Shown: one piece after another, positions 28,579 through 55,985 of the stretch
Layout of the letters: every line of letters starts with the position of its first letter
Position numbering within the stretch: position 1 is the first letter of the stretch
Virus genome (UHGV): UHGV-1381707
Length of the DNA stretch: 61,027 nt
DNA from: a virus
Strand: one strand, 5' to 3'
Made by a program: the position numbers and the translations under genes
Notes under the pieces: generated by a model
Database searches by the model: none
Seen by the model: the letters and a program-made list of their open reading frames with translations, nothing else
What the model was told of the DNA's origin: nothing

Positions 28579-28660
28579 TTTGTTGGGCCTCCTTTCTTTT
28601 TAATAAAAAAAATGCAAAAGGAAAAGTAAGCTCAAATTTAGCGCTTCTATTCCTTTCTCT

Positions 28661-29106: not shown

Positions 29107-29146
29107 AATATAATTAGTAACCTTACGGTTCCATAACAGCGAATGT

Positions 29147-38317: not shown

Positions 38318-38359
38318 ATTTACCACTCCTTTCATTAAAGGGGCTGTAAATATCGCGGA

Positions 38360-38876: not shown

Positions 38877-41800
38877 TTATCTAACATCAAATGGCATGCC
38901 ATCTTCCCATGGCAAAATATCATTTTCTCTTGGTCTCATAGGGATATAAGGATCATCCGAAACGAACCATTCATAATCACCGTACTTACCTATCGTTTCG
39001 ACCGCATCGTTAACGAGCTTGTCATAATAAGAACGGTCGATGTTGGCTTCTTTACCGAGTGTTTTTACCATTTCGGATTCAAGCCAACGATAACCTTTGG
39101 CTCCGGTAGCAGAGGAATACTTAACGTTTCCTTCTTTGTCTTTACCTTCACGAAGAAGTTCGCCGCCTCCGCAGCCCGGCTTAATAGGACAGAACAAACC
39201 GACCTTGCCTACAAAATGATAGTTGTGTTCGTCTTCTCCAAGATTATCATTCATATCTAAATATAAAGCCGTACTTACACTCTTCGTTTCGCACATATCA
39301 CCGAACTCAATCGGTTCCTTGCTAAAGAGCTTTTTGAACACATACGGAATCTGGAATTGGGTTCCCGTGGCAGTCCATTCCCCGGCATGCTTACCGTCCT
39401 TATACTTAGCAATGTAGACCGCATCATTAACGAGACACATCCTGTCATACGTCGCCTCATGCTCGAACGTGTAACCATACTGTTTGCCATATTCCATGAC
39501 AAATTGAATAATCTCAGGAGTGGCATCTGGTATCTTGATCGAGTCGGTCTTAATATGAGCCACCGTGAATCCGCGCTTTTGAACCTCGTGCTTGAGATTA
39601 ATCATGAACAAAGCCCCACGCTTGGCCACGATATTATCCTTATTACGAGAATCATGGAACGGATTATCAAAGCTTGCTGATGTCAAACCATAAACCGAGT
39701 TAATGGCGATCTTCAGAGCCTGAGCCAAATCAGCAGCCGCTTCTTCGTCATCCAAGTATTTCGCCAAAGATCCGCCCAGCATTGTTCTAGCCGTATCAAA
39801 ATCCTTATGTTTGATTGCAATACGGGCATCTCGAATCTCCTGGAATCGTTTCGTATATGCCTCTCCAAAGAGCTGTTCGGCAATGATGCTTGCCGGATGC
39901 ATGGACGCAATATCAAGTAATGCAACATTTCCATACATACCCGGCTCGGCATACACGTAGCCGCCCTCTCCGACTTCCTCTCCTCGATACGTGGACTTCC
40001 CTGCTTCAAATTTGTAACCTGGGAATATAGGTCGTCCGCCACCATCAAATATCGTGTACTCGTCGCCATAGTTGCTGTAAACAACGTTATCTTCGGTGAT
40101 AGTCACACGATCAGCCCCGTCGACCATTTCGCCCATGTTGCGATAGTTGAATTGATCTTGAGGTTTGCGATTACTACCAAATATAATTCTCGTAGTGAGA
40201 GAGTTAGTAGTGTCGTTTACGCTCATCCCAGCAACGTCCGCCAGAATCTTTCGAGCCGTGAAGTCAGCTTTCCTGGCATTAAATACAGCTTCCGTCGCTA
40301 TAACATCGTTATCGCAATACTCCGCAACCTTTGTCCACATTTCTTCAGGAACAGGTTGATCCCAAGGAAGTCCTAACTCCTGATGATGGATTCCTAGGTC
40401 AATCTCAAACTTTTTAAGCGACTGCTTTAAACTAGAGAAGTCATAAACATCCGTATATGAAATATTGTAAGCTTCTCCAAAGAAAGCTCCTCGATTTCCG
40501 CTGATTATTTTTTGCGACAAATCATAAAGCTGCTCATTCGTATACCCGATTAGCCGACCGTATAAAATATGATTATCGTATCGACGACAGTTGAAGCCCA
40601 CTAATCTGAATCTTAGTAATTCCTCGATTTCGGATGGCGTAGGGTTGATCATTCTAACAACCGGTTTTCCTTCCCCTTCGACTTTCCAGTTAACCAATAA
40701 CAGATTAGGAAACACCTCGACATCGTAAAATATCAACGCTGCATCGTCATTTTGAACGAATTCAGACGCCTCGTCAGACTTGAATTGCATTTTATTTACT
40801 AGTTTGATGCAATAGGCCGATTGGTTAGTGCTGCTTGCTGCGAAAGCTAATACAGCATTTCTCATGTCGGTAACGTCATATTTTAATCCATTGGCATGGG
40901 CATCCTCGAGTATCTTGTAAATGAAATCGATACTGCATTTAGTGCTAGAGTGATACTCCTTATTCAAATTCTTTTTGATGGCCGTTCTTAGTGATTTTTC
41001 ATTTTTTAAACCATCGAAATTTATCACCTTTTCCTCTCCTTTCAATGGCAATCCAGAACTAATAGTTGCAATCGGCAGGTCGTTGCATTTTGTAAGTTTC
41101 CTTCTCAGCGAACTTTTACCTGTGAATACTTTGATTTCGATATGGTCGCCATAAACTCTGCTGAGCTTGGTAACATCCCCATCATAAATATAATGAAGAT
41201 GCACCCCCGCTCCGCTCTTGCTCAACTCCGCATATGTTTCCGGCCATTTGCTTGCCTCCTCAACGTTTTTCTTGAAACATTTATTTCCGTTTTCATCCGG
41301 AATATCAAAGTCTATAACAATATGGTTTTTAGGAACTTTGACATAATGAATCTGAGAAGTGTCAAGGTCGGACAATTTAGTCGTTACATCCACCCATTTT
41401 TTAGATGGGGTTTCATTGGACGTAGCATATTGAGCCGGACAGTCTGCGCATTCTTTGTCAAATATCGACTTCCTTTTGCTAAATTTTATTAGTGGCAATT
41501 CCTCCTTTTTCTCTTTAACGTCGACCATATTAGTATCAAATTTTTCAGTTCTGAATCCCAAATAGTAGCTGCGTATTCTAGAACCATCTTCGAGACTAAA
41601 TCGCTCTTTATAATCCCGGAAGTAGTTTTTCAATTCCTCTTTGAAAATCCTTTGAGAAAATGGATAACCAACTTTTGCATCGTCGCAATAAGTTTTGTAC
41701 ATCTCCCAGGCAGCCTTAAGAGTCGTTCCATCTTCTTTTTTAAATACATGAAACGAATCGACTATAAAGTTATAGAAATCATTAGATGCCCCTAGCATTG

Positions 41801-42833
41801 TCACTGGAATATAATCGTCATAATAACCAGGATCGCTAAGGAATACCTCTTTGCAATGATTCGCAATGGCCCCAAGCTCGAACGAAACTTGTTTGACGGC
41901 AGTCTTATACTCTTTTGGGCTCAATTTATTTCCGGAAGGAGATACGTCAATTAATCTTCGAAGAAGACCTGATTTGGCATCTGTTATTTTTACCGGCTTA
42001 TTTGTACCCATGAATAAGAAGCATTTGAACCTGCTAGAATAAGTTGATTTAAACTTTTCATTAACCGTCATCAACTCGTGTGACACGAGACTATTAAGTC
42101 TCGTATTGTCCTCGATTTTTGACAAGTCACCATCATGCTGAATCGCTACAAGAGGGTTAGATTTAAACGCCTCCAATGCAAAAGAGTTACTAGACGATCC
42201 CAATGCTTTAGCATCAAAGACCGAGTAGTAACCCTCGAATAATTGCTGTATGATGTTTAAAATCGTTGATTTACCTGTACCAGCAGCACCATACAGAACC
42301 ATGAATTTCTGAATGCGCTTTGATTCTCCGGATACAATTGATCCGATGGCCCACTCTATTTTGCGCCTTTCTTCTTCGGAATATAAAGTGGAAATAAGCT
42401 TGTCGTAAGCAGGGGTATCGCCAGAAATTAATGGATAACTCAACCTCTTGCTAGCATAATCTTTCTTATTAGTCTCAGTGTTAGAAAATATAAGTTTTTC
42501 ATCGAGCATAGAGAAGGAGTCTCGCATTTGTTTTTGACAATACTTATGCCATCGGTCAATCATTCCAGATTCGGCATCCCACATGTGAAGAACTTTAAGC
42601 TTTGAATCGAATTTATTTTTATTTTCCTCCGCGTATTTCTCAAGTTCCCTATCTATAATAGCCAGAGCTTCTTGTTCATCAGTAGACCATAGTCCGCGCT
42701 CTTCGACCCAAATAGCATAGAAGTCTCCACCTCGAATCATGAGATCCGAACTTTTTTTGATTATAAACTTTGGATAAACTTCTACGTCTCCACGATTAGT
42801 TCTACGTGTTGCGACAATCAAAAAATCGATCAT
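38877..42833 (-). CDS. replication fusion protein: SF3/D5-like helicase NTPase, AEP primase-polymerase motifs and family-B DNA polymerase with 3'-5' exonuclease (1318 aa)
   Basis: Walker A LYGAAGTGKS. AEP-like VIDFDIPDENG and SGAGVHLHY. Exonuclease I FYDVEVFPN. PolB motif A DIASMHPASII, motif B KIAINSVYG, motif C HIKTDSI. Confidence 0.65.
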   Translation of the reverse strand: MIDFLIVATRRTNRGDVEVYPKFIIKKSSDLMIRGGDFYAIWVEERGLWSTDEQEALAIIDRELEKYAEENKNKFDSKLKVLHMWDAESGMIDRWHKYCQKQMRDSFSMLDEKLIFSNTETNKKDYASKRLSYPLISGDTPAYDKLISTLYSEEERRKIEWAIGSIVSGESKRIQKFMVLYGAAGTGKSTILNIIQQLFEGYYSVFDAKALGSSSNSFALEAFKSNPLVAIQHDGDLSKIEDNTRLNSLVSHELMTVNEKFKSTYSSRFKCFLFMGTNKPVKITDAKSGLLRRLIDVSPSGNKLSPKEYKTAVKQVSFELGAIANHCKEVFLSDPGYYDDYIPVTMLGASNDFYNFIVDSFHVFKKEDGTTLKAAWEMYKTYCDDAKVGYPFSQRIFKEELKNYFRDYKERFSLEDGSRIRSYYLGFRTEKFDTNMVDVKEKKEELPLIKFSKRKSIFDKECADCPAQYATSNETPSKKWVDVTTKLSDLDTSQIHYVKVPKNHIVIDFDIPDENGNKCFKKNVEEASKWPETYAELSKSGAGVHLHYIYDGDVTKLSRVYGDHIEIKVFTGKSSLRRKLTKCNDLPIATISSGLPLKGEEKVINFDGLKNEKSLRTAIKKNLNKEYHSSTKCSIDFIYKILEDAHANGLKYDVTDMRNAVLAFAASSTNQSAYCIKLVNKMQFKSDEASEFVQNDDAALIFYDVEVFPNLLLVNWKVEGEGKPVVRMINPTPSEIEELLRFRLVGFNCRRYDNHILYGRLIGYTNEQLYDLSQKIISGNRGAFFGEAYNISYTDVYDFSSLKQSLKKFEIDLGIHHQELGLPWDQPVPEEMWTKVAEYCDNDVIATEAVFNARKADFTARKILADVAGMSVNDTTNSLTTRIIFGSNRKPQDQFNYRNMGEMVDGADRVTITEDNVVYSNYGDEYTIFDGGGRPIFPGYKFEAGKSTYRGEEVGEGGYVYAEPGMYGNVALLDIASMHPASIIAEQLFGEAYTKRFQEIRDARIAIKHKDFDTARTMLGGSLAKYLDDEEAAADLAQALKIAINSVYGLTSASFDNPFHDSRNKDNIVAKRGALFMINLKHEVQKRGFTVAHIKTDSIKIPDATPEIIQFVMEYGKQYGYTFEHEATYDRMCLVNDAVYIAKYKDGKHAGEWTATGTQFQIPYVFKKLFSKEPIEFGDMCETKSVSTALYLDMNDNLGEDEHNYHFVGKVGLFCPIKPGCGGGELLREGKDKEGNVKYSSATGAKGYRWLESEMVKTLGKEANIDRSYYDKLVNDAVETIGKYGDYEWFVSDDPYIPMRPRENDILPWEDGMPFDVR

Positions 42834-44470: not shown

Positions 44471-45400
44471 TCAGATTAAATCCAAAATATTGCCATCAAC
44501 ATTGAAATCGAGAAGGATGACTCTTTCATATCCGTTAACAAAGTCCCTGGCATTCGGTCGGTTTACGTCGAAAATACCAAAATCAACAAAATTATCGCCA
44601 ACCGGATGTGCTTCGTCATAAATCCAACCCACACATTGACCAGCTTTTGTTCTCATGGCACCAAGCATGTCGTACACCTCATTCAAGAACAAATGACCTT
44701 TCGATTTAAGTAATTCATTGGCGTAGTTTTGCTGCTGAATCAGAAAGAATTTTGACACTTCCGGATCTTTATCCCACCCTGCATTTCCATCGTCAAAGAA
44801 TATGGAGTACGGACTATAACTATTAGGATCAGCCACGCCAATAGTCTGTTTTGTAACCTTCTCTTTTCCTTTTTCGTCTACGGAAACCTCTTCGATTTCT
44901 TTGGCTTTGATGTTGTACTTAAGCTCGCGATCCAATTCTTTTCCAAACCGCTCGATTACTCGACCTCTATATTCTTTAAACCCTTTATCAACCGTCGCAT
45001 ACGCCGCTGCTAATGCCACATTTCTTTGACGAATGATATTATGAGATGCAAGGATACATCCGATAGACGCCAAACCAAGGATAACAGAGGGAGCATACAG
45101 TTTAGCAAGACTGACGGCAGTTTTTGTATATACGATTGCCAGGTCTTTCTTGCTGTCTTGCTCTGTGTATCCTTCCTGCTTATCGGATTTCTCCATCATT
45201 TCATGAATTGTATCGACGGCGTCTTTCGTTTCTTCTAAAATGCTACTAACTTTCGTAGTAGCAACACAGGCCATAACAGCACTTACAGCTACTCCAGTAA
45301 CGCCTGCCACTATTAAAATTTCGGGACTATGCTTTTTAAACTTGAATCCAACACGACTAAATGTTCTCGTGAAGGAATTCGTGATTTCTCCTTTTTTCAT
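44471..45400 (-). CDS. two-TM membrane protein, paralog family copy A (309 aa)
   Basis: Shares N-terminal TM pair, central xAAAYATVDKGFKEYRGRV and C-terminal ...GW..D... segments with 48388-49182 and 49481-50239. Confidence 0.45.
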   Translation of the reverse strand: MKKGEITNSFTRTFSRVGFKFKKHSPEILIVAGVTGVAVSAVMACVATTKVSSILEETKDAVDTIHEMMEKSDKQEGYTEQDSKKDLAIVYTKTAVSLAKLYAPSVILGLASIGCILASHNIIRQRNVALAAAYATVDKGFKEYRGRVIERFGKELDRELKYNIKAKEIEEVSVDEKGKEKVTKQTIGVADPNSYSPYSIFFDDGNAGWDKDPEVSKFFLIQQQNYANELLKSKGHLFLNEVYDMLGAMRTKAGQCVGWIYDEAHPVGDNFVDFGIFDVNRPNARDFVNGYERVILLDFNVDGNILDLI

Positions 45401-48061: not shown

Positions 48062-48334
48062 TTAATCGGTTTCTTGGGATTCGCAATCGACAACGCCGTT
48101 TTCTTCCAAGTAGTCAGTAACTTCCGCCAGTCTCTTTTTGGCTTTGCGCTTAATGATCGCTGGCTCGACAATCTTCTTGTAGGCAATTGTACCTACAATA
48201 GCTGCCGCGCCGGCGACTGCGATAGCGACCAAACCCTTACGAGCTTTCCGGCCAACAACCTCTTCTTCCTCCGTGGTTTCGAAAACCTCTTCGTTGTTCA
48301 TGATTTCTTCTTCCATTGTTTTTTCTCCTTTCAA
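48062..48334 (-). CDS. small acidic protein with one TM helix (90 aa)
   Basis: GLVAIAVAGAAAIVGTIAY. Confidence 0.35.
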   Translation of the reverse strand: MKGEKTMEEEIMNNEEVFETTEEEEVVGRKARKGLVAIAVAGAAAIVGTIAYKKIVEPAIIKRKAKKRLAEVTDYLEENGVVDCESQETD

Positions 48335-48354
48335 TGATTAAAATTGGATTTCTT

Positions 48355-48384
48355 CCATTAAATGAATTGTTTTTTTCGCGAATG
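48355..48384 (-). promoter_or_regulatory. copy of the conserved TTCGCGAA promoter-like element
   Basis: Minus strand reads CATTCGCGAAAAAAACAATTCATTTAATGG. Confidence 0.45.
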
Positions 48385-48387
48385 TAA

Positions 48388-49182
48388 TCATCGATCGTAT
48401 TCATAAAATGGTGCATTTTCATGCGCTACCACTATACACGGTCTCCCGTCATCGGCTATTTGCGAACCTATACGAATTTTAATTCGTCTGTCAGCATTCC
48501 ATCCAATGTCGTCGCCAACGTCAGGTAAACGATTCAACCCTAGTTCATCGTAAAATTCATTTAACGATACATACCCACACATGTCATGCAATATTTGAGC
48601 ATTTAATTCATTTTCAGCTTTTTTTATTTTATCGATATCGGATTCAAAATATCTATCAGACAATAAATCGTAGCATAGCGTACTACCCCTTTTGGTCACG
48701 ATAACTTCACTTTTACTAACTGGATTTTTATCGATATGATCTTTATCGATTTTCTCCTTAATAACTTGTTCTTTTTTCTCGCCGAGGGTCTCAACCACTT
48801 TGTCTCGATACTCTGTTAAAGCCGTTTCGGAAAGTTTATAGGCCGTTGCCAGAGCTGCCGTTCGTTTCGCATGAACTGAACCAGCTCCGATTAGACATGC
48901 GATCGATACGGTCCCAGTTACAACTGCTGGAATATAACATTTCCAAGTAGCTTTAACAGTCTCAATCGGAGTTAAAGAAACGTCTTCGTTCTGATCAGAT
49001 GTCTCTTTCTTTAAATCCCTTTCGACCTCAAGCATTCGCATCGCTTTCGGAGTTGCTGTCACAGCAAGAACTGTCGTAGTGATCATCCCCGCAATGCCAA
49101 TTCCGGTAAGAATTTCAGGACTTCGCTTAGCCATTGCGGTTTGAACATTTTTGACCATTTTTGATAGATTCGGTGCACCCAT
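48388..49182 (-). CDS. two-TM membrane protein, paralog family copy B (264 aa)
   Basis: SPEILTGIGIAGMITTTVLAVTATPKA and ALATAYKLSETALTEYRDKV align with copies A and C. Confidence 0.45.
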   Translation of the reverse strand: MGAPNLSKMVKNVQTAMAKRSPEILTGIGIAGMITTTVLAVTATPKAMRMLEVERDLKKETSDQNEDVSLTPIETVKATWKCYIPAVVTGTVSIACLIGAGSVHAKRTAALATAYKLSETALTEYRDKVVETLGEKKEQVIKEKIDKDHIDKNPVSKSEVIVTKRGSTLCYDLLSDRYFESDIDKIKKAENELNAQILHDMCGYVSLNEFYDELGLNRLPDVGDDIGWNADRRIKIRIGSQIADDGRPCIVVAHENAPFYEYDR

Positions 49183-49207
49183 AGTTTTTCTCCTTTCATT
49201 TTTAGCA

Positions 49208-49236
49208 AAAAGAAAAAGAGTCCTAAATTAGGACTC
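49208..49236 (-). terminator. terminator hairpin GAGTCCTAA-TTAGGACTC (perfect 8-bp stem) plus TTTTTCTTTTTGC
   Basis: Includes the stop codon of the 50-aa gene upstream. Near-identical ~50-bp module at 31665-31716. Confidence 0.55.
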
Positions 49237-49383
49237 CTTCTCTGTTTTGGCGAGTTGTTCTGCAACTTTCTTTGCAACTTTGTTTTCCAGCTCCTTGTCG
49301 GCGAAGTAGCTAGTAGCTAAGGTTACCCCGATACTAGCGACGGACACCACAATTTTGATGGCTTTAAGTGCTTTTGAGTTCAT
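49231..49383 (-). CDS. small membrane protein (50 aa)
   Basis: MNSKALKAIKIVVSVASIGVTLATSYF... RBS AAAGGGGAG. Confidence 0.3.
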
Positions 49384-49400
49384 AATTAAATCTCCCCTTT

Positions 49401-49433
49401 CATAAGATGACTTGTTAATTTCGCGTCAACAAA
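49401..49433 (-). promoter_or_regulatory. copy of the conserved promoter-like element (here with a good -35 TTGACG)
   Basis: Minus strand reads TTGACGCGAAATTAACAAGTCATCTTATGAAAGGGGAG. Confidence 0.5.
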
Positions 49434-49480
49434 TACAAAATTAGCACCTTTTATCGTCACCTGAGTACGGAAAATATAAA

Positions 49481-50239
49481 TTAATACTCATCGAATTCTG
49501 GAAACGGCTCTGTCATTCGAATTATCGTGCATTCTAATCCGTCTTCCATTACCACTTTTTCATGAGCGAAGTCGATCCAAGCATCCCAATACATATCATG
49601 CAATGCCGGCGAAGACCATCCAAGATAATCACCATAATCGACTCTTGGAATGCCTAAGAATTCGTAGAATTCATTCAAAAATGCTGCTCCGCCAACAGTA
49701 ACTTCTTTATTAAGTTCGTATTCGGCATTTAGAACAGACTCCATAGTTGATCTAAAATATCTTTCAGAAAACTCGTCATAAAATAATCGTTTTCCATCGG
49801 ATTCATCGTCGATCACTTCTTTTTCATCGTAATTATCTTTTGCCATTTCGGCTCGTACCTGCCCGTCGACTTCTTCTCCATATAATTCTTCAACTTTTTT
49901 CTTATACTCTTTATAAGAATTGTCAACCAAAGCATATGCGCTCATTAAGGCTGCCTGATGACGTTTGTTTAATATATTTGCGCCAAATATACAAGCTATC
50001 GTCGACGTTCCAATTAGAATAGCTGGAATATAAGCAGGGCCTGCTGTTTTTACAACTTCTAATTTTGTAAGTGCTTCTCCTTTTTCTTCCTTAGCAGCGT
50101 CTAATAACTTCAAAGCTTTTGGCGTAGCTTTCACAGCCATAACCGTAGTGGCTACTACTCCCGTTGCTCCTGCTACGGTTAAAATTGTTGATGCATTTCT
50201 TTTCATAAATTTTTTTGAATGAACTAGCAAATTATTCAT
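49481..50239 (-). CDS. two-TM membrane protein, paralog family copy C
   Basis: Likely start MNNLLVHSKK at 50239 after GAAAGGTGAGAG. ASTILTVAGATGVVATTVMAVKATPKA and AALMSAYALVDNSYKEYKKKV align with copies A and B. Confidence 0.45.
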   Translation of the reverse strand: MNNLLVHSKKFMKRNASTILTVAGATGVVATTVMAVKATPKALKLLDAAKEEKGEALTKLEVVKTAGPAYIPAILIGTSTIACIFGANILNKRHQAALMSAYALVDNSYKEYKKKVEELYGEEVDGQVRAEMAKDNYDEKEVIDDESDGKRLFYDEFSERYFRSTMESVLNAEYELNKEVTVGGAAFLNEFYEFLGIPRVDYGDYLGWSSPALHDMYWDAWIDFAHEKVVMEDGLECTIIRMTEPFPEFDEY

Positions 50240-50349
50240 GTTTCTCTCACCTTTCGAGTTGGGATAAAAATAAAAGAGAATCATGCCCCTGGGAATCGAA
50301 CCCAGTCTATTGATATAATCAATCGCGTACCGTTCGCGAATCATGTTTC

Positions 50350-50381
50350 TCTCATAATACAGCATGTAATTTTCGCGAAAA
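50350..50381 (-). promoter_or_regulatory. copy of the conserved promoter-like element, followed by a ~110-nt leader
   Basis: Minus strand reads TTTTCGCGAAAATTACATGCTGTATTATGAGAG. The leader holds a second TTCGCGAA and a T-arm-like CTGGGTTCGATTCCCAG. Confidence 0.45.
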
Positions 50382-50406
50382 CAAAAAGGAAACCCCATGC
50401 AGGGGC

Positions 50407-50580
50407 TTACCTTCTTTTCTTACGCTTAAGTAGCCATTTCATGATTAATACTATAAACACGATACATACGATTACATCTCCGAATATGATGATGAATGCA
50501 CTCCCTCCTAAAACTATAGCTAGGACCGTAACCGTCACCAATGTCAATAATGTAAGCATTAAGATTGTGAATAATACCAT
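50407..50580 (-). CDS. small hydrophobic membrane protein (57 aa)
   Basis: MVLFTILMLTLLTLVTVTVLAIVLGG... RBS AAGGAGG. Confidence 0.3.
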   Translation of the reverse strand: MVLFTILMLTLLTLVTVTVLAIVLGGSAFIIIFGDVIVCIVFIVLIMKWLLKRKKRR

Positions 50581-50606
50581 CTCTACATAACCTCCTTAAT
50601 TGTTTT

Positions 50607-50636
50607 CATAAAGGGGTATGTTTGATTCGCGAATGC
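50607..50636 (-). promoter_or_regulatory. copy of the conserved promoter-like element
   Basis: Minus strand reads GCATTCGCGAATCAAACATACCCCTTTATG. Confidence 0.45.
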
Positions 50637-50664
50637 AAAAAAGAAAGAGTCCTAAATGGACTCC
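50637..50664 (-). terminator. terminator hairpin GAGTCC-TAAAT-GGACTC of the repeated family
   Basis: Minus strand GGAGTCCATTTAGGACTCTTTCTTTTTT. Confidence 0.5.
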
Positions 50665-50816
50665 CTCTCCTCAGAATCATTATCTTTAGTTTTCTTGTTA
50701 TCAAGATACTCCTTAACTTTGTCGACAGCGGCCATTCCCGCATAGATTCCGGCTATATAACCGAACCCTATTGCTAAAGCTTGAGCTGCTGATTTCAAAA
50801 TTCCTTCTTGTTTCAT
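50652..50816 (-). CDS. small membrane protein (54 aa)
   Basis: Start MKQEGILKSAAQ at 50816 after AAGGAGG. The longer track ORF (to 50945) overlaps the upstream gene and lacks an RBS. Confidence 0.35.
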   Translation of the reverse strand: MKQEGILKSAAQALAIGFGYIAGIYAGMAAVDKVKEYLDNKKTKDNDSEERESI

Positions 50817-50847
50817 GATAAATTCCTCCTTAAAATTTTTGATTCTT

Positions 50848-50878
50848 TCATTAAAGGAACTGTATTTTTCGCGAAAAA
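50848..50878 (-). promoter_or_regulatory. copy of the conserved promoter-like element
   Basis: Minus strand reads TTTTTCGCGAAAAATACAGTTCCTTTAATGAAAG. Confidence 0.45.
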
Positions 50879-50886
50879 GAAGAGGA

Positions 50887-51144
50887 CTAAGCCTCTTCAC
50901 CGAGATCAAATAAATTTTCCCAAAAGCGTCTAGCTTCTGATTCATTCATATGACTCCTAATTTGCTTAGATCCTTCTTCTTTTGAACTGAGTCTCTTTAA
51001 TGTTTCAACGCTTTTTTTAAGTTTCTCGATCTCAATTCTTTGTTGAATAACGATACCTTGGATTTCTCCCAACTCCTTGTATACCGCCATTTCAAAGTCC
51101 AGATCCTTCTTCTTTCTAAACATTTCAACATACACTCCTTTCAT
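50887..51144 (-). CDS. coiled-coil hypothetical protein (85 aa)
   Basis: ORF with an RBS; followed by hairpin GAAGAGGCTTAGTCCTCTTC (50871-50896). Confidence 0.35.
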   Translation of the reverse strand: MKGVYVEMFRKKKDLDFEMAVYKELGEIQGIVIQQRIEIEKLKKSVETLKRLSSKEEGSKQIRSHMNESEARRFWENLFDLGEEA

Positions 51145-51172
51145 AATAACGCATGTAAATTTCGCGTCTAAA
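51142..51172 (-). promoter_or_regulatory. copy of the conserved promoter-like element
   Basis: Minus strand reads GACGCGAAATTTACATGCGTTATTATGAAAGGAG. Confidence 0.45.
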
Positions 51173-51527
51173 TTTGCCTTCTATCAAAACACGTTTCCCA
51201 TCGTTCACGTTTCAAAGGTTTCATCTTTAATGCCCACATCATTTGTCGGATTGTTACAGTTGGATATAAACCATCTTCGCATGAACCCGAACGAGCATCA
51301 AAATGGTCTTTAAATTTCGGATGCAAATATAAAGCGTCTGTTAACCAGGGATCTATTTCTCCCCACCAGGTCGTTTTGGTTTCTTCATCGAAACGCTGCT
51401 GTATTATAGCCAAACCTCTATCACCGACAGTGAACAAAGTACATTTATCGTAAACCGGGTGATTACAGGCATATGTGGTCCCGTACATAGAAGAATATAA
51501 AGTTGGTTTTTCATAATGGTATCTCAT
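51168..51527 (-). CDS. hypothetical protein (119 aa)
   Basis: ORF. Confidence 0.35.
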   Translation of the reverse strand: MRYHYEKPTLYSSMYGTTYACNHPVYDKCTLFTVGDRGLAIIQQRFDEETKTTWWGEIDPWLTDALYLHPKFKDHFDARSGSCEDGLYPTVTIRQMMWALKMKPLKRERWETCFDRRQI

Positions 51528-51546
51528 TCATGCCTCGCTAAAATTG

Positions 51547-51577
51547 AAAAGAGAAGAGTCCTAGTTAGGACCCTACC
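51547..51577 (-). terminator. terminator hairpin of the repeated family (GGTCCTAACTAGGACTC)
   Basis: Hairpin followed by TTCTCTTTTC on the minus strand. Confidence 0.4.
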
Positions 51578-51750
51578 TCTTTGTCGTATTTGGCCGTAGC
51601 ATTAACTACTTTGTTATCGTATTCCGCCACCTTACTCAAATAATATCGATAACGTCGAACGTTACATTTGTACCGTTCCAACTTTCTCGAATAGAATTTA
51701 ATTTGGTGCTCGAGAATAAATAATTTAATTCGTTTTATCACTCTGACCAT
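51565..51750 (-). CDS. small basic hypothetical protein
   Basis: ORF. Real start may be the GTG giving MIKRIKLFILEH..., 5 nt after GGGAGATGG. Confidence 0.3.
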   Translation of the reverse strand: MVRVIKRIKLFILEHQIKFYSRKLERYKCNVRRYRYYLSKVAEYDNKVVNATAKYDKEVGS

Positions 51751-51758
51751 CTCCCTTC

Positions 51759-51789
51759 ATTATAGGAGATGTAAATTTGGCGAAAAACA
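51759..51789 (-). promoter_or_regulatory. copy of the conserved promoter-like element with a canonical TATAAT
   Basis: Minus strand reads TTTTTCGCCAAATTTACATCTCCTATAATGAAGGGAGATGG. The CATCTCC/GGAGATG inverted repeat would sequester the SD. Confidence 0.5.
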
Positions 51790-51832
51790 AGAGACCGTGT
51801 TCGCACAGTCCCTTGCATTGAACGTATTATTT

Positions 51833-52183
51833 CTATTTTCTATAAAGTAGACTATTTACAAATCCTCTACCCATTATTGTAGTGACGCTCCCAGTTTCCT
51901 CAAATTTGAAAGATGTTAGCGTTCCCCAAACAGCAATTCCTGCTGGTATGATTATTCCAGCTCCAGTTAGTACGTGCTTAACTACTCGATCTACTTTTTC
52001 AACCTTAAGCTGCTTCTCTTTCAAAACAGTTTCAGACTTAAGCTTTTCGATCTCGATAGCTTTGTCGACTAAGGTACTCAAACCTTCTACCTTTAGTTTG
52101 TACTGCTCGGGATTCAAGTTTTGATCTTTCAAACTTTCGAATCCACTTTGGATTTCGTCACCCAATACTTTTTCGATTTCCAT
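51833..52183 (-). CDS. coiled-coil protein with C-terminal TM helix (116 aa)
   Basis: GAGIIIPAGIAVWGTL. Confidence 0.35.
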   Translation of the reverse strand: MEIEKVLGDEIQSGFESLKDQNLNPEQYKLKVEGLSTLVDKAIEIEKLKSETVLKEKQLKVEKVDRVVKHVLTGAGIIIPAGIAVWGTLTSFKFEETGSVTTIMGRGFVNSLLYRK

Positions 52184-52221
52184 TGCTCATTCCTCCTTTT
52201 GAATATAAGAACTAATACGTT

Positions 52222-52253
52222 CTCATAATAGGACTTGTTAATCGTGCGAAAGG
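52222..52253 (-). promoter_or_regulatory. copy of the conserved promoter-like element; overlaps the stop codon of the upstream gene
   Basis: Minus strand reads CGCACGATTAACAAGTCCTATTATGAGAACG. Confidence 0.4.
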
Positions 52254-52444
52254 TCGGCTTTATGGTCGATTTCCAAGACAATTATCTTTTTCTTAGACAA
52301 CTTATCCAGGTTATCGATTTCGAGCCTATAGAGGTCTTTCTCCGGATTAGAATGATCGATTTTTAACTTTCCAACTACGCGAGTTAAGAACCAGATGCAT
52401 ACTATAACGATTCCGAATATTATTCCTAAGATGAATGACAACAT
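52238..52444 (-). CDS. small membrane protein (68 aa)
   Basis: MLSFILGIIFGIVIVCIWFL. Confidence 0.35.
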   Translation of the reverse strand: MLSFILGIIFGIVIVCIWFLTRVVGKLKIDHSNPEKDLYRLEIDNLDKLSKKKIIVLEIDHKADLSHD

Positions 52445-52562
52445 TCGTATTCCTCCTTTCTAAATTGTTTTTCAAAAATTCCAACCCGGGAAATTTTCGC
52501 TTTATAAAAGTAGCATTTTTTCAGGTAACCCGAGTACGGAAAATATAAAGCTAGGTTAAATG

Positions 52563-52591
52563 AAAAAGAAAGAGCCCTAGTTAGGACTCAA
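52563..52591 (-). terminator. terminator hairpin of the repeated family (GAGTCCTAACTAGGGCTC)
   Basis: Followed by TTTCTTTTTC on the minus strand. Confidence 0.45.
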
Positions 52592-52609
52592 TCTTTCATC
52601 TAACCTTAC

Positions 52610-52852
52610 TCAAAAGTTTTCTCTAATAAGAAATACTTCTCCATTTCGAACAGTGACTATTATTTGTGACATACCCAATCGCAATGCTGATCTCCTAAGT
52701 GCATTCGCGCAAACATGAGGTGTCGAATGCGCAAAATTTTCAACTTTAACGCACTCTAATCCACTTCGCAGGAACTCCTCAAGAACCACTTGATTTTTGC
52801 AATGTCTGTACGTCCTCGTAATCATCGCTTTTTCCCAAGGAATCAGATTCAT
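52610..52852 (-). CDS. hypothetical protein (80 aa)
   Basis: ORF. Confidence 0.35.
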   Translation of the reverse strand: MNLIPWEKAMITRTYRHCKNQVVLEEFLRSGLECVKVENFAHSTPHVCANALRRSALRLGMSQIIVTVRNGEVFLIRENF

Positions 52853-52882
52853 TTTAGATTTCTCCTTTCAAATTATAAGATT

Positions 52883-52913
52883 CCATAAAGGGGATTGTTT
52901 TCCTCGCGACAAC
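52883..52913 (-). promoter_or_regulatory. copy of the conserved promoter-like element
   Basis: Minus strand reads GTTGTCGCGAGGAAAACAATCCCCTTTATGG. Confidence 0.45.
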
Positions 52914-52914
52914 A

Positions 52915-52945
52915 AAAAGAAAGAGCCCTAGATGGGCTCAATCTC
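52915..52945 (-). terminator. terminator hairpin GAGCCC-ATCTA-GGGCTC (perfect 6-bp stem) of the repeated family
   Basis: Followed by TTTCTTTTTG on the minus strand. Confidence 0.5.
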
Positions 52946-52947
52946 TT

Positions 52948-53145
52948 TTATTGAATATAGTTTCTTCTAGCGAGGAATAACGGAATTCCAAACATCAACG
53001 TGAACAATAACACTGTGGCGTCGCCAGTTATAACTCTCAGAATCACCCCAATAGCAATCAAGGCTAATGCGGCCATCTTGTTGTTGAGCGTCCTTCGAAA
53101 ATACTTGACGAGCTCTCTTTTGATTTCACCATTTTTTGAATTCAT
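52948..53145 (-). CDS. small membrane protein (65 aa)
   Basis: AALALIAIGVILRVI ... LLFTLMFGIPLFL. Confidence 0.35.
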   Translation of the reverse strand: MNSKNGEIKRELVKYFRRTLNNKMAALALIAIGVILRVITGDATVLLFTLMFGIPLFLARRNYIQ

Positions 53146-53161
53146 TTACATCCTCTCCTTT

Positions 53162-53192
53162 CATAAAGGAGGATGTTTTCCTCGCGAAAAAG
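53162..53192 (-). promoter_or_regulatory. copy of the conserved promoter-like element
   Basis: Minus strand reads TTTTTCGCGAGGAAAACATCCTCCTTTATGAAAGGAGAGGATG. The CATCCTC/GAGGATG inverted repeat overlaps the SD. Confidence 0.45.
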
Positions 53193-53193
53193 A

Positions 53194-53610
53194 TTAGTCA
53201 CGCATATTACTTAGCAGCCAAAAGAACTTTCTGTATCTGTCATAATACGTGTCTCGGCTGCAAGGGATATTGAATCTAGATTTAAGATTTGTATATGACA
53301 AACCTTCCGTTACCCCTTTTAATATATAGTCGCATAAATACTCATCGGCTTCTTCGGCGGCTCTTTCGACCATTTTGATAAGTTCAGCATACTGAAGTTT
53401 CTTCATTGCATATTTAGCCGTCAAATCCGTTGGAACATTAGTCGAAGGCATCCCGCTAAATATTGACGATATGCTGAACTCACTTAAATCTTTGTATTTT
53501 TTCTTCCATGACTTATATTGCAAGCAGAAATGCTTTAATTCATAAAATCTATGTCGGTCAATCCAATACTTATTGTTTAATGATAATTCTGGTCTTATTG
53601 TCGTTGCCAT
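53194..53610 (-). CDS. first gene of the leftward early operon; hypothetical, possible HTH regulator (ArpU/RinA-like resemblance is weak)
   Basis: Divergent from the repressor gene. C-terminal LSYTNLKSRFNIPCSRDTYYDRYRKF could form a helix-turn-helix. Confidence 0.3.
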   Translation of the reverse strand: MATTIRPELSLNNKYWIDRHRFYELKHFCLQYKSWKKKYKDLSEFSISSIFSGMPSTNVPTDLTAKYAMKKLQYAELIKMVERAAEEADEYLCDYILKGVTEGLSYTNLKSRFNIPCSRDTYYDRYRKFFWLLSNMRD

Positions 53611-53898
53611 TCTTCTTTCTCCTTTTAATTTTTTTAAAAAATATAATCGTCGCTTTTTCTATCTTATCTAGATTAACTTCACCAGTAATTTTTACAGTCG
53701 CGTTTTTGCATCTAAATTCTCGCAGAAGCATCACTCCTTGTTAGTTTTGCGCGATTACAGGCTAAATATAACACCAACCGAAAAATTATGTCAACATATT
53801 TTTCGCATGTTTTACTCCAAAAATCTTAATCTAGGTTAAAATTTGTTGCATATGTGCGAGCGTTTGGTGTATGCTATATCATGTAAAGGAAAGGAGTA
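53611..53898. promoter_or_regulatory. divergent early/lysogeny control region with two rightward copies of the TTCGCGAA-type element and operator-like half-sites
   Basis: Plus strand TTTTGCGCGATTACAGGCTAAATATAAC (53741-53771) and TTTTCGCATGTTTTACTCCAAAAATCTTAAT (53796-53830). CTCGCA (about 53716) and its reverse complement TGCGAG (about 53855) flank them. Confidence 0.4.
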
Positions 53899-54297
53899 AT
53901 GCTGATGTCATTCGGTGAAAGATTAAAACAGCGGCGACTGAAACTTAATATATCCGCTGGCGAATTAGCGAGTTTAATCGGTAAAAACAGAGCGACAATA
54001 TATCGATATGAAAAAGGAGACATTGGAAACATTCCTGTCGACATAATCGATCCGTTAGCGGAAGCTCTTGATACGACCCCAGAATATCTAATGGGGTGGA
54101 CTGATTCCGAAGAAGTTGGGACTAGAATCGAACAAGGTAAAAAGACGACCATTTATGTAGCTATACAAGTATCAGAAGCTAAACAGATGGAAAAATGGTT
54201 CAAGGAACTAGGCAGAGTAACATTAACTGATGAAGAATTCGAAAAAATAATTGAGTATGGAAAATTTCTGTTATATATGAGAAACGATGACGAATGA
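53899..54297 (+). CDS. XRE-family helix-turn-helix repressor (cI-like)
   Basis: ERLKQRRLKLNISAGELASLIGKNRATIYRYEKGD...IDPLAEALDTTPEYLMGW is a classic HTH_3 motif. Located upstream of the integrase and divergent from the early operon. Confidence 0.7.
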   Translation: MLMSFGERLKQRRLKLNISAGELASLIGKNRATIYRYEKGDIGNIPVDIIDPLAEALDTTPEYLMGWTDSEEVGTRIEQGKKTTIYVAIQVSEAKQMEKWFKELGRVTLTDEEFEKIIEYGKFLLYMRNDDE

Positions 54298-54410: not shown

Positions 54411-55985
54411 ATGACAGTATTTGAAATGAATGACGCGATTAATGATGCATTCACTGGAAAGATGGACAAATATGCGATTTATTTGCGTAAGTCCCGTGCT
54501 GACATTGAAGCCGAAAAGTTGGGCGAGGGCGAAACTTTAACCCGCCACAAAATGATTCTAACGGAACTAGCAGCACGAAAGGGTTTTTACATTGAAAAGA
54601 TTTATCAAGAAATCGTGTCAGGTGAAACAATCGAAGCGCGTGAGGAAATCCAAAAACTAATTAACGATTGCTATGCAGGGAAATATCGCGGGATTCTTGT
54701 AATCGACATCACAAGGCTGTCCCGTGGTAATCAGGGCGATGCACAAACAATCCTAGATTGCCTGAAGTTCGCAAATAATAACAACGGCGTGTTAGTAATA
54801 ACGCCAACTAAAACATACGATGTGGCACACAATCACGACGACGAAGAATACATGGAATTTGAATTGTTCATGTCACGTCGCGAATACAAGATGATTCGCA
54901 AGCGTATGGAACGCGGAAAACTTCAAGCTGTAGTCGAGGGAAATTACATTAGTTCATCTCGCCCGTATGGTTACAACATATTAAAGACTAAAACGGGTAG
55001 AACGCTGATCCCAAATGATGAAGAAGCTCCCGTGGTAAAGCAAATATTCGAATGGACTATAAAGAATAATTCCACGCCAGGCAAAATCGCTAGAAGATTG
55101 ACTGCGATGGGCGTTCCGACATACACGGGAATGCCCGAATGGTCCGACGAAACTATAAGAAGTATACTTCAAAATCCGGTTTATACAGGAAAAGTAAGAT
55201 GGAATAACAGAATGGCTGTGAAACGATTAGTTGATGGAGAACTGGTGAAAAGTCGCCCTCGCTGGAACCACAACGAACACTATATAGAAGTTGACGGTAA
55301 GCACAAACAATATGCCTTAATCGATGACGAAACATTCAAAAAAGCAGGACAAAGGTTTCATAGTGATAAAACGAGGGCTGGGCTTAAATTGGTGAACCCT
55401 CTTGCAGGAATTCTATGTTGTGCAAAATGTGGACGACCTATGATGTATATGCCATATGTAAACAATCCAACACCGCCAAGACTTGCACATAGGCATTCAC
55501 AAACGTGCAAAGTTAAGTCTGCAATAGCCAGTGACGTAATCGAAGCGGTAGTGCATGGTTTAAAGCTGTATATAGAAGATTTTGAAATGAAAATTGATGA
55601 AATGCCCGAAGTTGACGAAAATGCGATTGCGGACCAAATAGACGCCCTACAAAAAGAAATAAAAAAGATAAAAAAGAAGCTGTCGAAACTGTTCGATGCA
55701 TGGGAAAATGATGACATTACAGACAATGAATTTGTTCAGCGTAAAGCTGTCAATAATGCTCGTATAGACGCAATAAAAAATGAGATCGAAGAACTTGAAA
55801 ACACTATCCCTGAAAAAGAAGAACATGAAGATACTATAATGAAGCTGTCGGATGCGCTCGACGCGCTGCTCGACGAAGAACTCGAAGCAAGTGTTAAAAA
55901 CACATATTTGAAAGAGATTGTAAGTAAAATAGAGTTCAGTCGCGAAAACAATAAAGAATTTATATTGGACATAATCCTGAAGTAA
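54411..55985 (+). CDS. int: large serine recombinase (phage integrase)
   Basis: N-terminal resolvase catalytic region (YLRKSRAD with Ser; VIDITRLSRG). Recombinase domain. Zinc ribbon CCAKCGRPM...HRHSQTCK. C-terminal coiled-coil. 524 aa. Confidence 0.85.
   Translation: MTVFEMNDAINDAFTGKMDKYAIYLRKSRADIEAEKLGEGETLTRHKMILTELAARKGFYIEKIYQEIVSGETIEAREEIQKLINDCYAGKYRGILVIDITRLSRGNQGDAQTILDCLKFANNNNGVLVITPTKTYDVAHNHDDEEYMEFELFMSRREYKMIRKRMERGKLQAVVEGNYISSSRPYGYNILKTKTGRTLIPNDEEAPVVKQIFEWTIKNNSTPGKIARRLTAMGVPTYTGMPEWSDETIRSILQNPVYTGKVRWNNRMAVKRLVDGELVKSRPRWNHNEHYIEVDGKHKQYALIDDETFKKAGQRFHSDKTRAGLKLVNPLAGILCCAKCGRPMMYMPYVNNPTPPRLAHRHSQTCKVKSAIASDVIEAVVHGLKLYIEDFEMKIDEMPEVDENAIADQIDALQKEIKKIKKKLSKLFDAWENDDITDNEFVQRKAVNNARIDAIKNEIEELENTIPEKEEHEDTIMKLSDALDALLDEELEASVKNTYLKEIVSKIEFSRENNKEFILDIILK

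Follow-up and report, generated by a model that had tools for sequence, protein, structure and literature searches.

The 61,027-nucleotide gut prophage genome analyzed here (hereafter the window) carries a family of oriented DNA elements that are probably promoters read by the phage's own single-chain YonO/QDE-1-like RNA polymerase (RNAP) and not by the host sigma-A holoenzyme, the identity of the reader being suggested by phyletic pattern and by the geometry of the element. If true, this would define a previously undescribed promoter class in phages of Clostridia, Lactococcus, and Actinobacteria. The initial annotation had offered either a shared operator or a phage-specific promoter class, possibly for the YonO-like RNAP, and the comparative evidence favors the latter over the former.

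A 31-bp weight matrix derived from 466 unique family members returned 14 matches in the window, scoring 28.7-39.5 bits and all on the minus strand, which is the gene (coding) strand. No minus-strand score fell in the gap between 8 and 20 bits, the top score on the plus strand was 1.0 bit, and 200 shuffles gave a top score of 15.3 bits and none at 20 bits; none of the matches is expected by chance. The initial annotation had described at least 12 copies, and this family is real: both outliers and all ten copies of the 48.3-53.2 kb stretch were recovered within 2-4 bp of where they had been placed, the outliers now at 28658-28688 and 32883-32913, and two further copies were added by the matrix scan (29128-29158 and 38329-38359). 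Two reverse-oriented copies thought to lie at 53741-53830 and to drive repressor/int were not found, as neither the full matrix nor a half-site matrix (motif positions 1-16) gave a plus-strand score there. The copies are listed below with the ORF that each would drive (a raised dot separates motif positions 26 and 27; SD, Shine-Dalgarno sequence).

53158-53188, minus strand: copy 1, 33.3 bits, TTCGCGAGGAAAACATCCTCCTTTAT·GAAAG, starting 6 nt past the stop of the 138-aa gene; inferred transcription start site 53162; 65-aa ORF 52948-53145.
52880-52910, minus strand: copy 2, 28.7 bits; terminator 52939-52923 ahead; 80-aa ORF 52610-52852.
52220-52250, minus strand: copy 3, 33.0 bits, overlapping the final 13 nt (52238-52250, including the stop codon) of ORF 52238-52444; 116-aa ORF 51833-52183.
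51754-51784, minus strand: copy 4, 33.3 bits, TTCGCC variant; SD at motif position 28; ORF of about 58-61 aa with its end at 51565.
51138-51168, minus strand: copy 5, 31.6 bits, GACGCG variant; SD AAAGGAG at positions 28-34; ORF 50887-51144 (exact start codon uncertain).
50845-50875, minus strand: copy 6, 38.9 bits; terminator 50898-50879 ahead; 54-aa ORF 50652-50816.
50603-50633, minus strand: copy 7, 31.3 bits; hairpin and T-run ahead; 57-aa membrane ORF 50407-50580.
50349-50379, minus strand: copy 8, 39.5 bits; terminator 50408-50390 ahead; directly downstream a degenerate tRNA-like element, then the DUF6353 gene 49481-50239.
49397-49427, minus strand: copy 9, 31.6 bits, GACGCG variant; SD at position 29; 51-aa ORF 49228-49383.
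48352-48382, minus strand: copy 10, 36.3 bits, 6 nt past the stop of the DUF6353 gene 48388-49182; ORF of about 84 aa, 48062-48316.
38329-38359, minus strand: copy 11, 34.2 bits, adjoining the stop of the single-strand-annealing gene 38360-38848; SD at position 29.
32883-32913, minus strand: copy 12, 37.4 bits; no SD with an ORF of at least 35 aa within 140 nt downstream, the next sizeable ORF being 32118-32633.
29128-29158, minus strand: copy 13, 29.0 bits, overlapping the 3' end of the HTH gene 29147-29629; ORF of about 113 aa from 29091.
28658-28688, minus strand: copy 14, 39.3 bits, the last copy; terminator 28736-28712 ahead; heading the operon of endonuclease, exonuclease, RNAP, and 84-aa ORF.

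These positions support a promoter-like DNA element ahead of gene units. Its proposed placement just after a terminator and just before a ribosome-binding site holds for part of the copies, since a terminator-like hairpin precedes about 6-7 of the 14 and an SD abuts the motif in five of the 14, whereas in the remaining copies the SD lies 11-100 nt further on. Across the family, such hairpins precede 37% of copies compared with 16% of control positions.

The element is strictly oriented, conserved in register across phyla, and found together with the polymerase. Among related phages, 80 metagenomic loci found via the 138-aa protein gave 655 copies on the gene strand and 0 on the opposite strand, in register, and 41 of the 80 loci found via the RNAP gave 119 and 0, respectively. 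All 119 copies lie upstream of the RNAP gene, zero copies occur in the late genes of these 41 loci up to 10 kb downstream of it, and about 32 of the 41 loci scanned have an equivalent of copy 14 at a distance of about 0.9-1.05 kb ahead of the RNAP gene. Among named phages, in-register copies on the gene strand are present in Faecalibacterium phage FP_oengus (14), Gordonia phage Tanis (11 of at least 22 bits and two weaker), Arthrobacter phage Salk (10), Streptomyces phage TieDye (12), and Lactococcus phage 1706 (about 14, of the form TTTTACA-N5-CTATAGT·AGAAAG). The hosts of these phages span two phyla, with a G+C content of roughly 34-72%. MT835485 gave no RNAP match, and this scaffold stops before the expected RNAP position. 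The window phage, Tanis, and 1706 have the RNAP, the 84-aa ORF, and DUF6353 in common, along with structural and replication proteins, but do not share the XRE repressor, the 160-aa HTH protein (29147-29629), or the 138-aa protein. For exactly this group of phages, Koert et al. (bioRxiv 10.1101/842583) give the RNAP as signature gene. In the window, it is encoded within the following operon.

28279-28578, minus strand: VRR-Nuc-like endonuclease.
27706-28263, minus strand: Cas4/PD-(D/E)XK-like exonuclease.
24669-27701, minus strand: single-chain two-barrel RNAP of 1010 aa, the proposed motif reader.
24407-24661, minus strand: 84-aa ORF (phrog_4303), directly after the RNAP gene.

In the RNAP, the catalytic loop GADFDGD occupies residues 534-540, and HTH motifs resembling sigma region 4 lie at residues 99-127 and 969-1008; the loop and the HTH motifs at both ends are kept in all six lineages. 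The 84-aa ORF is found behind the RNAP gene in each of the relatives examined (Tanis gp93, 1706 orf76, FP_oengus gp56), and its product is possibly an RNAP partner. The order endonuclease-exonuclease-RNAP is kept in all relatives, and copy 14 is predicted to drive the two nuclease genes (27706-28578) together with the RNAP. In neither the window phage nor 1706 was a strong sigma-A promoter detected near the RNAP operon.

Within the family, the conserved core consists of three blocks, CGC(G/A) at positions 3-6, ACA at 13-15, and CTWTWAT-GRAA at 20-30, which are about 10.5 bp (about one helical turn) apart and therefore on one helix face; the family logo is invariant at C3 G4 C5, C14, and A25 T26 G27. 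Lineage-specific variants (TATTAT·G, TATAAT·G, TATAGT·A, and TTATAT·GG) would fit the pattern known from co-evolving polymerase-promoter pairs. The conserved core is not the perfect 8-bp palindrome TTCGCGAA around which the initial annotation had built the element. The palindrome is indeed over-represented in the window (8 occurrences versus 2.06 expected) and perfect in 7 of the 14 copies, but among unique family copies no more than 18.5% have it in perfect form, and FP_oengus (GACGCGAA), Tanis (TTCGCAGG), 1706 (TTCGCATG/TTCACATG), Salk, and TieDye lack it. A shared operator, in which a dimeric phage repressor (the XRE protein, 53899-54297, or the HTH protein, 29147-29629) would bind the palindrome and silence many promoters at once, would account for this local excess and for a position where a repressor would block the promoter, yet it is extremely improbable given that CGC(G/A) is asymmetric, that the orientation is strict (655:0), that the repressor switch region is without any copy, and that the motif-bearing lytic relatives have no detectable homologue of either protein; the operator role proposed for these two proteins was therefore not borne out.

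An SD starts at motif positions 27-33 in about 110 of the 466 unique copies (about 24%), for example TTTAAT·GGAGGTGATTCACATG, and a tRNA or tRNA-like gene starts there in about 25 loci, its acceptor 5' strand being the conserved GRAA. Because SDs and tRNA-like genes begin at these positions, transcription would start at about G27, which is incompatible with TWTWAT as a sigma-A -10. The hexamer (positions 21-26) is TATAAT in most Tanis, Salk, and TieDye copies, TATAGT in 1706, and TATTAT or TTTTAT in gut phages, and this resemblance to TATAAT, perfect in most copies of the three actinophages examined, counts against reading by the phage RNAP. A sigma-A reading with TATAAT/TATTAT as -10 and TTGACG as -35, as suggested earlier, was not supported: in the set of 466 unique copies, a -35 placed at 16-18 bp matches at best 2.55 of 6 bases on average, a TG extension is seen in 5%, and A occupies the '-11' position in only 53%, while the -35-like TTCGCR is only 14 bp from the hexamer; moreover, with SDs or tRNA-like genes 1-7 nt past the hexamer, a sigma-70-type start would truncate them.

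An unusual host-RNAP promoter is possible, although we regard it as rather unlikely. Here, sigma-A would read TWTWAT as a -10, with transcription starting 6-8 nt past T26; the CGC and ACA blocks would replace the -35 and be bound by a phage activator or appropriator (MotA-like geometry) or by core enzyme, and the phage RNAP would merely be one motif-driven gene, transcribing only late genes via another signal. Besides the hexamer, this would be consistent with the RNAP operon lying behind a copy and the late genes being copy-free, which fits a cascade from an early sigma-A promoter to motif promoters, the RNAP, and late genes, and also fits SPbeta, where YonO is the late-gene enzyme (PMC5467207). 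It would also be consistent with many gut-phage loci having a copy exactly where the first early gene (for the 138-aa protein) ends. The units also close with intrinsic terminators, a feature of bacterial RNAP, and this, together with the location of the RNAP operon itself behind a copy, with no strong sigma-A promoter detected nearby to supply the first polymerase molecules, counts against the phage enzyme as reader. However, a start at 32-34 would truncate the SDs and tRNA-like genes described above, the -35, TG, and '-11' A are lacking or weak, the CGC and ACA blocks remain in register between Actinobacteria and Firmicutes phages, and the RNAP is the only DNA-binding protein detected as shared, the 138-aa protein being missing from lytic relatives. 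In addition, no second conserved promoter-like element was seen by eye in the cos-to-first-late-gene interval of 11 related genomes.

An element acting in RNA, whether for processing, for 5' stabilisation, or for translational control by pairing of its upstream half with the SD, is very improbable. Such hairpins are possible in a few copies, among them 53158-53188 (CATCCTCCTTT...AAAGGAGAGGATG) and 51754-51784, and sequestration of the SD had been suggested on such grounds, but pairing of the upstream half with the downstream region is barely above that of swapped partners (mean 5.40 versus 5.22 bp; stems of at least 7 bp in 21.7% versus 15.8%), an excess due to the pyrimidine-rich positions 18-22 facing the purine-rich SD. 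If transcription starts at G27, the upstream half would be outside that transcript, and T-run terminators end ahead of the motif, at a median distance of 8 nt, so that upstream transcripts would mostly stop short of it. The spacing of the blocks by one DNA helical turn, the presence of the element ahead of tRNA-like genes, which need no SD, and the lack of an Rfam match also argue against a role in RNA.

A promoter for the phage RNAP, the reading that we favor, would span about 30 bp, with +1 at motif position 27, the invariant G of TTATG, and with CGC(G/A) at -24 to -21, ACA at -14 to -12, CTWTWAT at -7 to -1, and the purine-rich start GRAA at +1 to +4, and the sigma-region-4-like HTH domains of the polymerase could contact the blocks on one helix face. 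Each copy would head a small unit in which the promoter is followed by a short leader or an SD, by an ORF, and often by a terminator. At the right end of the virion genome, the last copy would head the operon of endonuclease, exonuclease, and RNAP, thus providing positive feedback, and after circularisation read-through across cos may extend into the copy-less late genes.

Promoters of the T7/T3/SP6 type are compact (about 23-30 bp), strictly oriented, conserved through the start site, and without a -35; they are A/T-rich before +1, then have a purine-rich initial sequence, and occur in many copies with lineage-specific variants. The motif resembles them, going by what is established for these promoters, in being compact and oriented with TWAT·GRAA around the start, in its many copies ahead of gene units, in its variant per lineage, and in the lack of a -35, but it differs in being conserved to -24, in its three blocks a helical turn apart, and in its TATAAT-mimicking hexamer; T7 RNAP and the polymerase here, a two-barrel enzyme with a cellular NADFDGD-type loop, are unrelated. 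The TATAAT-like hexamer with a second box about 14-20 bp upstream is shared with sigma-70/sigma-A and T4 middle (MotA-box) promoters, whereas sigma-70/sigma-A promoters have a 16-18-bp spacing instead of the 14 bp of TTCGCR, may carry the TTGACA and TG that are absent here, and start 6-8 nt past the hexamer instead of the 1 nt inferred here. YonO of SPbeta is likewise a single-polypeptide two-barrel DNA-dependent RNAP in a phage of Firmicutes, encoded just upstream of late genes; the direct homology of the window RNAP to YonO rests on PHROG annotation and on Koert et al., and Bacillus phages were absent from the ten most frequent host genera in a tblastn search with the window RNAP. YonO starts at one mapped site serving one late operon, its promoter sequence being undefined (Forrest et al. 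2017, PMC5467207), in contrast to the 14 copies here, all ahead of early and middle genes; transcription of the SPbeta late operon by YonO counts against the RNAP reading, as does the lack of a similar sequence in the yonN-yonK region, where YonO starts. A matrix scan of 30 kb around yonO found no motif-like sequence (best minus-strand score, 3.5 bits). A precedent for a phage-encoded non-canonical two-barrel RNAP with conserved motifs ahead of genes is Thermus phage P23-45, whose gp96 (virion) and gp64 (non-virion) enzymes have conserved motifs directly upstream of 7-14 early-gene transcription starts (PMC10770324), although the sequences differ, with P23-45 having one AT-rich and one GC-rich motif. 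Of its two enzymes, one is injected as a fusion with the tape measure protein, whereas the tape measure protein of the window phage has no DxDGD motif and no RNAP similarity.

The early region and the element behind copy 8 include the following features.

53765-53794, minus strand: canonical sigma-A early promoter, TTGACA-18-(TG)TATATT.
53194-53610, minus strand: 138-aa early protein (phrog_11237), all-helical.
50266-50351, minus strand: degenerate tRNA-like element, starting at motif position 29 of copy 8.

The early promoter is the only 11/12 sigma-A match in 47-54 kb, is predicted to drive a 54-aa ORF and the 138-aa gene, and provides an example of a host-type promoter in the window phage. 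The 138-aa protein gave no specific fold match and is confined to the temperate gut lineage, and it is therefore not a general motif reader. The tRNA-like element has a T-arm (CTGGGTTCGATTCCCAG) and an acceptor-like stem (GAGAAAC/GATTCTC); it was not called by ARAGORN or Rfam, and homologous elements are present in relatives.

The palindrome TTCGCGAA, around which the initial annotation had built a family of promoter-like elements, is over-represented in the window (8 observed versus 2.06 expected), and ten copies aligned by eye are in perfect register across 31 bp. The matrix made from these ten detects 14 sites on the minus strand, the best plus-strand site reaching at most 5.6 bits; a second matrix, based on 466 unique family members, gives these 14 sites 28.7-39.5 bits, the rest of the minus strand stays at or below 8 bits, the plus strand reaches 1.0 bit at best, and 200 shuffles of the window all remain below 20 bits. 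All 12 forward copies listed initially are recovered by the scan, together with two further copies at 29128-29158 and 38329-38359 (numbered here, from 53.2 kb down to 28.7 kb, as copies 1-14). The two reverse copies proposed near the repressor are not borne out: full and half-site matrices give no plus-strand score there, and the plus strand of 53735-53900 contains neither a motif copy nor a half-site.

The window is a temperate siphovirus genome (~61 kb) of the FP_oengus type, associated with gut Clostridia, in which the minus strand carries nearly all genes outside the lysogeny module. The features needed here are the following.

54411-55985, plus strand: serine recombinase of the lysogeny module
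53899-54297, plus strand: XRE repressor of the lysogeny module
53794-53765, minus strand: canonical sigma-A early promoter, TTGACA-18-TATATT with TG before TATATT
Below 53.7 kb, in order: this early promoter, a 54-aa ORF and the gene for a 138-aa protein (phrog_11237)
After the 138-aa gene: a run of DUF6353 paralogues and small ORFs, the latter often for membrane proteins
49481-50239, 48388-49182 and 44471-45400, minus strand: the three paralogues of DUF6353 (phrog_2152), all with a membrane segment at the N terminus
38877-42833: primase-polymerase, then helicase, endonuclease and Cas4-like exonuclease
24669-27701, minus strand: 1010-aa protein of the "RNA-dependent RNA polymerase" family (phrog_4291), the YonO-like single-chain two-barrel polymerase called RNAP below, then the 84-aa ORF and the structural genes
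24407-24661, minus strand: acidic 84-aa ORF (phrog_4303), directly after the RNAP gene
~24300-24385, minus strand: highly conserved cos-like sequence, GGGGAGGGGTCTGAAAAATGACACCCCCTCC..ATCGCGCGCCTCC followed directly by TAAAAAATTCTCCGGGGG

Because megablast of 47-55 kb against phage genomes gave no match, relatives were sought via proteins. FP_oengus (50% G+C; RNAP 42% identical) has 14 motif copies, all on the gene strand and in the form GACGCGAAAAAtnCAGnnnnCTTTATGGA, so that the palindrome is incidental. The 138-aa protein retrieved 80 IMG/VR loci, in which the gene strand carries 655 motif matches and the opposite strand zero, and the loci retrieved with the RNAP yielded 119 matches in 41 of 80, all on the RNAP strand and all upstream of the RNAP; strand use is thus 14:0 in the window and 655:0 and 119:0 in related loci. 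About 32 of those 41 loci carry one copy ~0.9-1.05 kb ahead of the RNAP start codon, and their late genes, followed for up to 10 kb downstream of the RNAP, contain zero copies, as do the bacterial flank of MT835485 and 64 kb past the RNAP gene in MT835495. In the logo of the 466 unique instances, C3, G4, C5, C14, A25, T26 and G27 are invariant and G6, A13, A15, C20, T21, T23, T24 and R28 A29 A30 are strong, giving three blocks with centres ~10.5 bp apart and a T-rich stretch ahead of them. The conservation extends well beyond gut phages. A tblastn search with the RNAP returned 250 phage records, chiefly actinophages and Lactococcus phages, of which four genomes were scanned: the lytic Gordonia phage Tanis (51% G+C) has 11 copies of at least 22 bits and two weaker ones, typically TTCGCAGGGAATACACGTCCTATAAT/GAGACCCCTAYGAAAGGA (the slash in motif sequences standing before position 27), Arthrobacter phage Salk has 10, Streptomyces phage TieDye 12, and Lactococcus phage 1706 ~14 in the variant ttYRCAtGTTTTACAyryaCTATAGT/AGAAAGAAGG. 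These copies share the register of the window motif and occur on the gene strand only, mostly in the small-gene array after the tail module, with one before the endonuclease-exonuclease-RNAP operon, and divergent gut lineages have their own variants (TGCGCA...TATAGT/AGAAA and TTCGCA...CTTATAT/GGAA). The motif is therefore kept in related phages of gut Clostridia, Lactococcus and Actinobacteria.

This distribution bears on who might bind the element. The initial annotation had considered the palindrome as an operator, for example of the XRE repressor, but TTCGCGAA occurs in just 18.5% of unique copies, relatives carrying GACGCGAA, TTCGCAGG or TTCACATG instead; the element is directional, and the switch region is devoid of copies, which argues against a repressor operator. 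Neither the XRE repressor nor the 160-aa HTH protein proposed as a binder fares better, since the motif is present in the lytic relatives Tanis and 1706, where neither has a detectable homologue. BLAST of the ORFs shows that the window, Tanis and 1706 have in common the structural proteins, DUF6353 (also in FP_oengus), the primase-polymerase, a single-strand annealing protein, the helicase, endonuclease, exonuclease, RNAP and 84-aa ORF, and that the 138-aa protein, like the two candidate binders, is not shared with Tanis or 1706. The 84-aa ORF trails the RNAP gene in all lineages examined, from gut Clostridia phages to actinophages. The suggestion that the element sequesters the Shine-Dalgarno (SD) sequence is not supported either, as positions 12-24 pair with 27-54 hardly better within a copy than they do when the partner is taken from an unrelated copy (mean longest stem 5.40 versus 5.22 bp; stems of at least 7 bp in 21.7% versus 15.8%), and Rfam gives no match. 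The placement just after a terminator holds for many copies (37% versus 16% of control positions), with a median of 8 nt between the end of the stem and the motif. Between 47 and 54 kb there are six minus-strand terminator-like sites (13 on both strands versus 4.6 expected), and this placement fits insulated transcription units.

The position of the downstream signals suggests where transcription would begin. In ~110 of the 466 unique copies the first base of an SD correctly spaced from an ATG falls at motif positions 27-33 (for example ...CTTTAAT/GGAGGTGATTCACATG), and an SD within the same range is found in five window copies and in 1706. ARAGORN predicts, in ~25 loci from several lineages, tRNA or tRNA-like genes that start within motif positions 27-33, the conserved GRAA forming the acceptor 5' strand and ...TTTCT, followed by a T-run, the 3' strand. 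Together these positions put the probable first transcribed base at G27 or immediately before it, where the TATAAT-like box (positions 21-26) ends. With G27 as +1 the blocks fall at -24/-21, -14/-12 and -7/-1, which is not the geometry of sigma-70. Were TWTWAT at 21-26 a sigma-70-type -10, transcription would start at 32-34, which is contradicted by SDs and tRNA-like genes that begin at 27-33. On average over the 466 unique copies, the best TTGACA-like hexamer at 16-18 bp agrees with the consensus in 2.55 of 6 bases, with at least five matches in 0.2%, and the TTCGCR box lies 14 bp upstream of the hexamer; position 22 ("-11") has A in 53% and T in 38% of copies, 99% have T at position 26, and TG occupies positions 18-19 in only 5.4%. 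The sigma-A reading thus fails at the -35, at the -10 with its TG extension and at the start distance, the last being tested indirectly. The conserved ATG at 25-27 was also considered as a leaderless start codon and rejected: 1706 and some gut lineages read TAGT/AG at this place, and the Tanis frame runs for four codons before a stop.

The RNAP has a catalytic loop, GADFDGD, at residues 534-540, Pfam matches to HTH_38 and HTH_23 above cut-offs and to Sigma70_r4_2 at cut-off over residues 969-1008, and weaker HTH matches at 99-127; the loop and both HTH motifs are kept in six aligned RNAP lineages. When the motif was tested as a member of the functional class typified by T7 promoters, i.e. promoters specific to a phage RNAP, many near-identical co-oriented copies were found before gene units and none in the host DNA checked, and an in-register motif, each time in its own variant, was found in six of six RNAP-bearing lineages, a comparison composed wholly of RNAP-positive phages. 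MT835485 has 24 copies and no RNAP match, but its scaffold represents an incomplete prophage: bacterial genes flank it at one end, and at the other the sequence stops short of where the RNAP would be expected. These patterns point to a promoter specific to the phage polymerase, conserved over two bacterial phyla, for a polymerase class without a known promoter. In such a scheme, CGCR-N6-WACA-N4-CTWTWAT/GRAA (~30 bp, in the same register in phages of Actinobacteria, Lactococcus and gut Clostridia) would be read by the sigma-region-4-like HTH domains of the RNAP itself, and the 14-bp spacing with a start directly after the TATAAT-like box would make it orthogonal to host sigma-A. We give even chances to the full proposal, namely that this is the first defined promoter of the YonO-like "RdRP-like" single-chain two-barrel RNAPs, sigma-independent, HTH-read, sigma-A-orthogonal and cross-phylum. 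Literature searches, including literal sequence strings, returned no description of the motif. Work on actinophage clusters AM/AU and CC notes the small membrane-protein gene arrays and no promoter, and Koert et al. (bioRxiv 10.1101/842583), who do not mention promoters, describe this RNAP, an enzyme with an HTH domain at each end, as the signature gene of the actinophage-Lactococcus-Faecalibacterium supercluster formed by these phages. YonO of SPbeta, a distant relative of the window RNAP, was shown to be a genuine DNA-dependent RNAP by Forrest et al. 2017 (PMC5467207), who left its promoter undefined and the recognised sequence and need for helper factors open; the yonO-yonK surroundings in SPbeta contain nothing motif-like. 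Thermus phage P23-45 provides a precedent, its two-barrel phage RNAPs using conserved motifs at early-gene starts (PMC10770324). A tape-measure-fused polymerase of the P23-45 type was rejected for the window, the tape measure protein having neither a DxD[GA]D motif nor RNAP similarity.

That the host RNAP reads the motif instead is unlikely in our judgement, yet this explanation keeps substantial weight because the RNAP operon is itself preceded by a motif copy, with no convincing host-type promoter near it in the window or in 1706, and because the late genes carry no copy. If the phage RNAP is the reader, its first expression could come from read-through from the early sigma-A promoter, possibly aided by the 138-aa protein in temperate members, from weak host recognition of the TATAAT-like box, or from entry order, an option raised by the location of the RNAP operon at the right end of the genome. 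In isolate genomes and many IMG/VR contigs the sequence stops 170-335 nt past the 84-aa ORF, and the cos-like sequence of the window has homology to the physical termini of Tanis and 1706 and to many IMG/VR contig ends, which makes the RNAP operon the right-terminal transcription unit in the virion. Transcription of the late genes may rely on read-through across cos once the genome has circularised, or on a different signal.

If the element is indeed the signal read by these polymerases, a large sister family of YonO, then sequence recognition and the need for helper factors could be tested directly with one 1010-aa protein and a defined template of 31 bp, and the small membrane-protein gene arrays of Arthrobacter, Gordonia and Rhodococcus phages would be a battery of independently promoted units. 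Annotators would also have a simple matrix with which to mark transcription units across hundreds of genomes of actinophages, lactococcal phages and gut phages, and the pair could serve as an orthogonal expression system, based on one protein, in Gram-positive bacteria of different phyla. Koert et al. (bioRxiv 10.1101/842583) proposed a common ancestry for these phages, which the in-register conservation over two phyla supports independently.

Several further observations concern the surroundings of the motif. A copy stands before at least two of the three window DUF6353 paralogues, directly or via an intervening small ORF, and in many relatives tRNA or tRNA-like genes lie between an immediately 5' motif copy and a DUF6353 gene. 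Among them are predicted ochre-suppressor tRNAs (anticodon UUA), many have abnormal anticodon loops, and all terminate in ...TTTCT plus a T-run. Examples in related loci, and a remnant in the window, are as follows.

L054:2459-2533, L005:3184-3258, L038:14112-14184 and L001:2935-3006, with others in L055, L057 and L059: tRNA-like loci
Window 50266-50351, minus strand: degenerate tRNA-like remnant after copy 8

ARAGORN and Rfam make no call on the window, the tRNA-like piece after copy 8 being too degenerate. In several relatives tandem motif pairs 65-67 bp apart, with no ORF between, directly follow the 138-aa gene (positions 50952 and 50886 in MT835485; also in related loci L041-L046). In the region of copy 12 (32750-32913, minus strand) a small GC-rich hairpin (32856-32843) comes after the motif, and no SD with an ORF lies within 140 nt downstream; its product may be a short non-coding transcript or the long leader of the ORF at 32118-32633.

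A second conserved oriented element, CCGYACKCRGGTGAC with a TATATT-like sequence ~11 nt on, has two copies in the window.

52490-52545, minus strand: second element
49425-49475, minus strand: second element

In related loci (L003-L082) it occurs 30 times on the gene strand and once on the opposite strand, and in many relatives it lies ~200 nt ahead of the 138-aa gene, the place occupied in the window by the canonical sigma-A early promoter; it may represent a second promoter or operator class. The middle and replication region of Tanis (record 30.8-55.8 kb), which has few copies of the main motif, contains a different short recurrent sequence, (C/T)CATATT(T/C), ~25-45 nt ahead of many start codons; it may likewise be a second promoter class.
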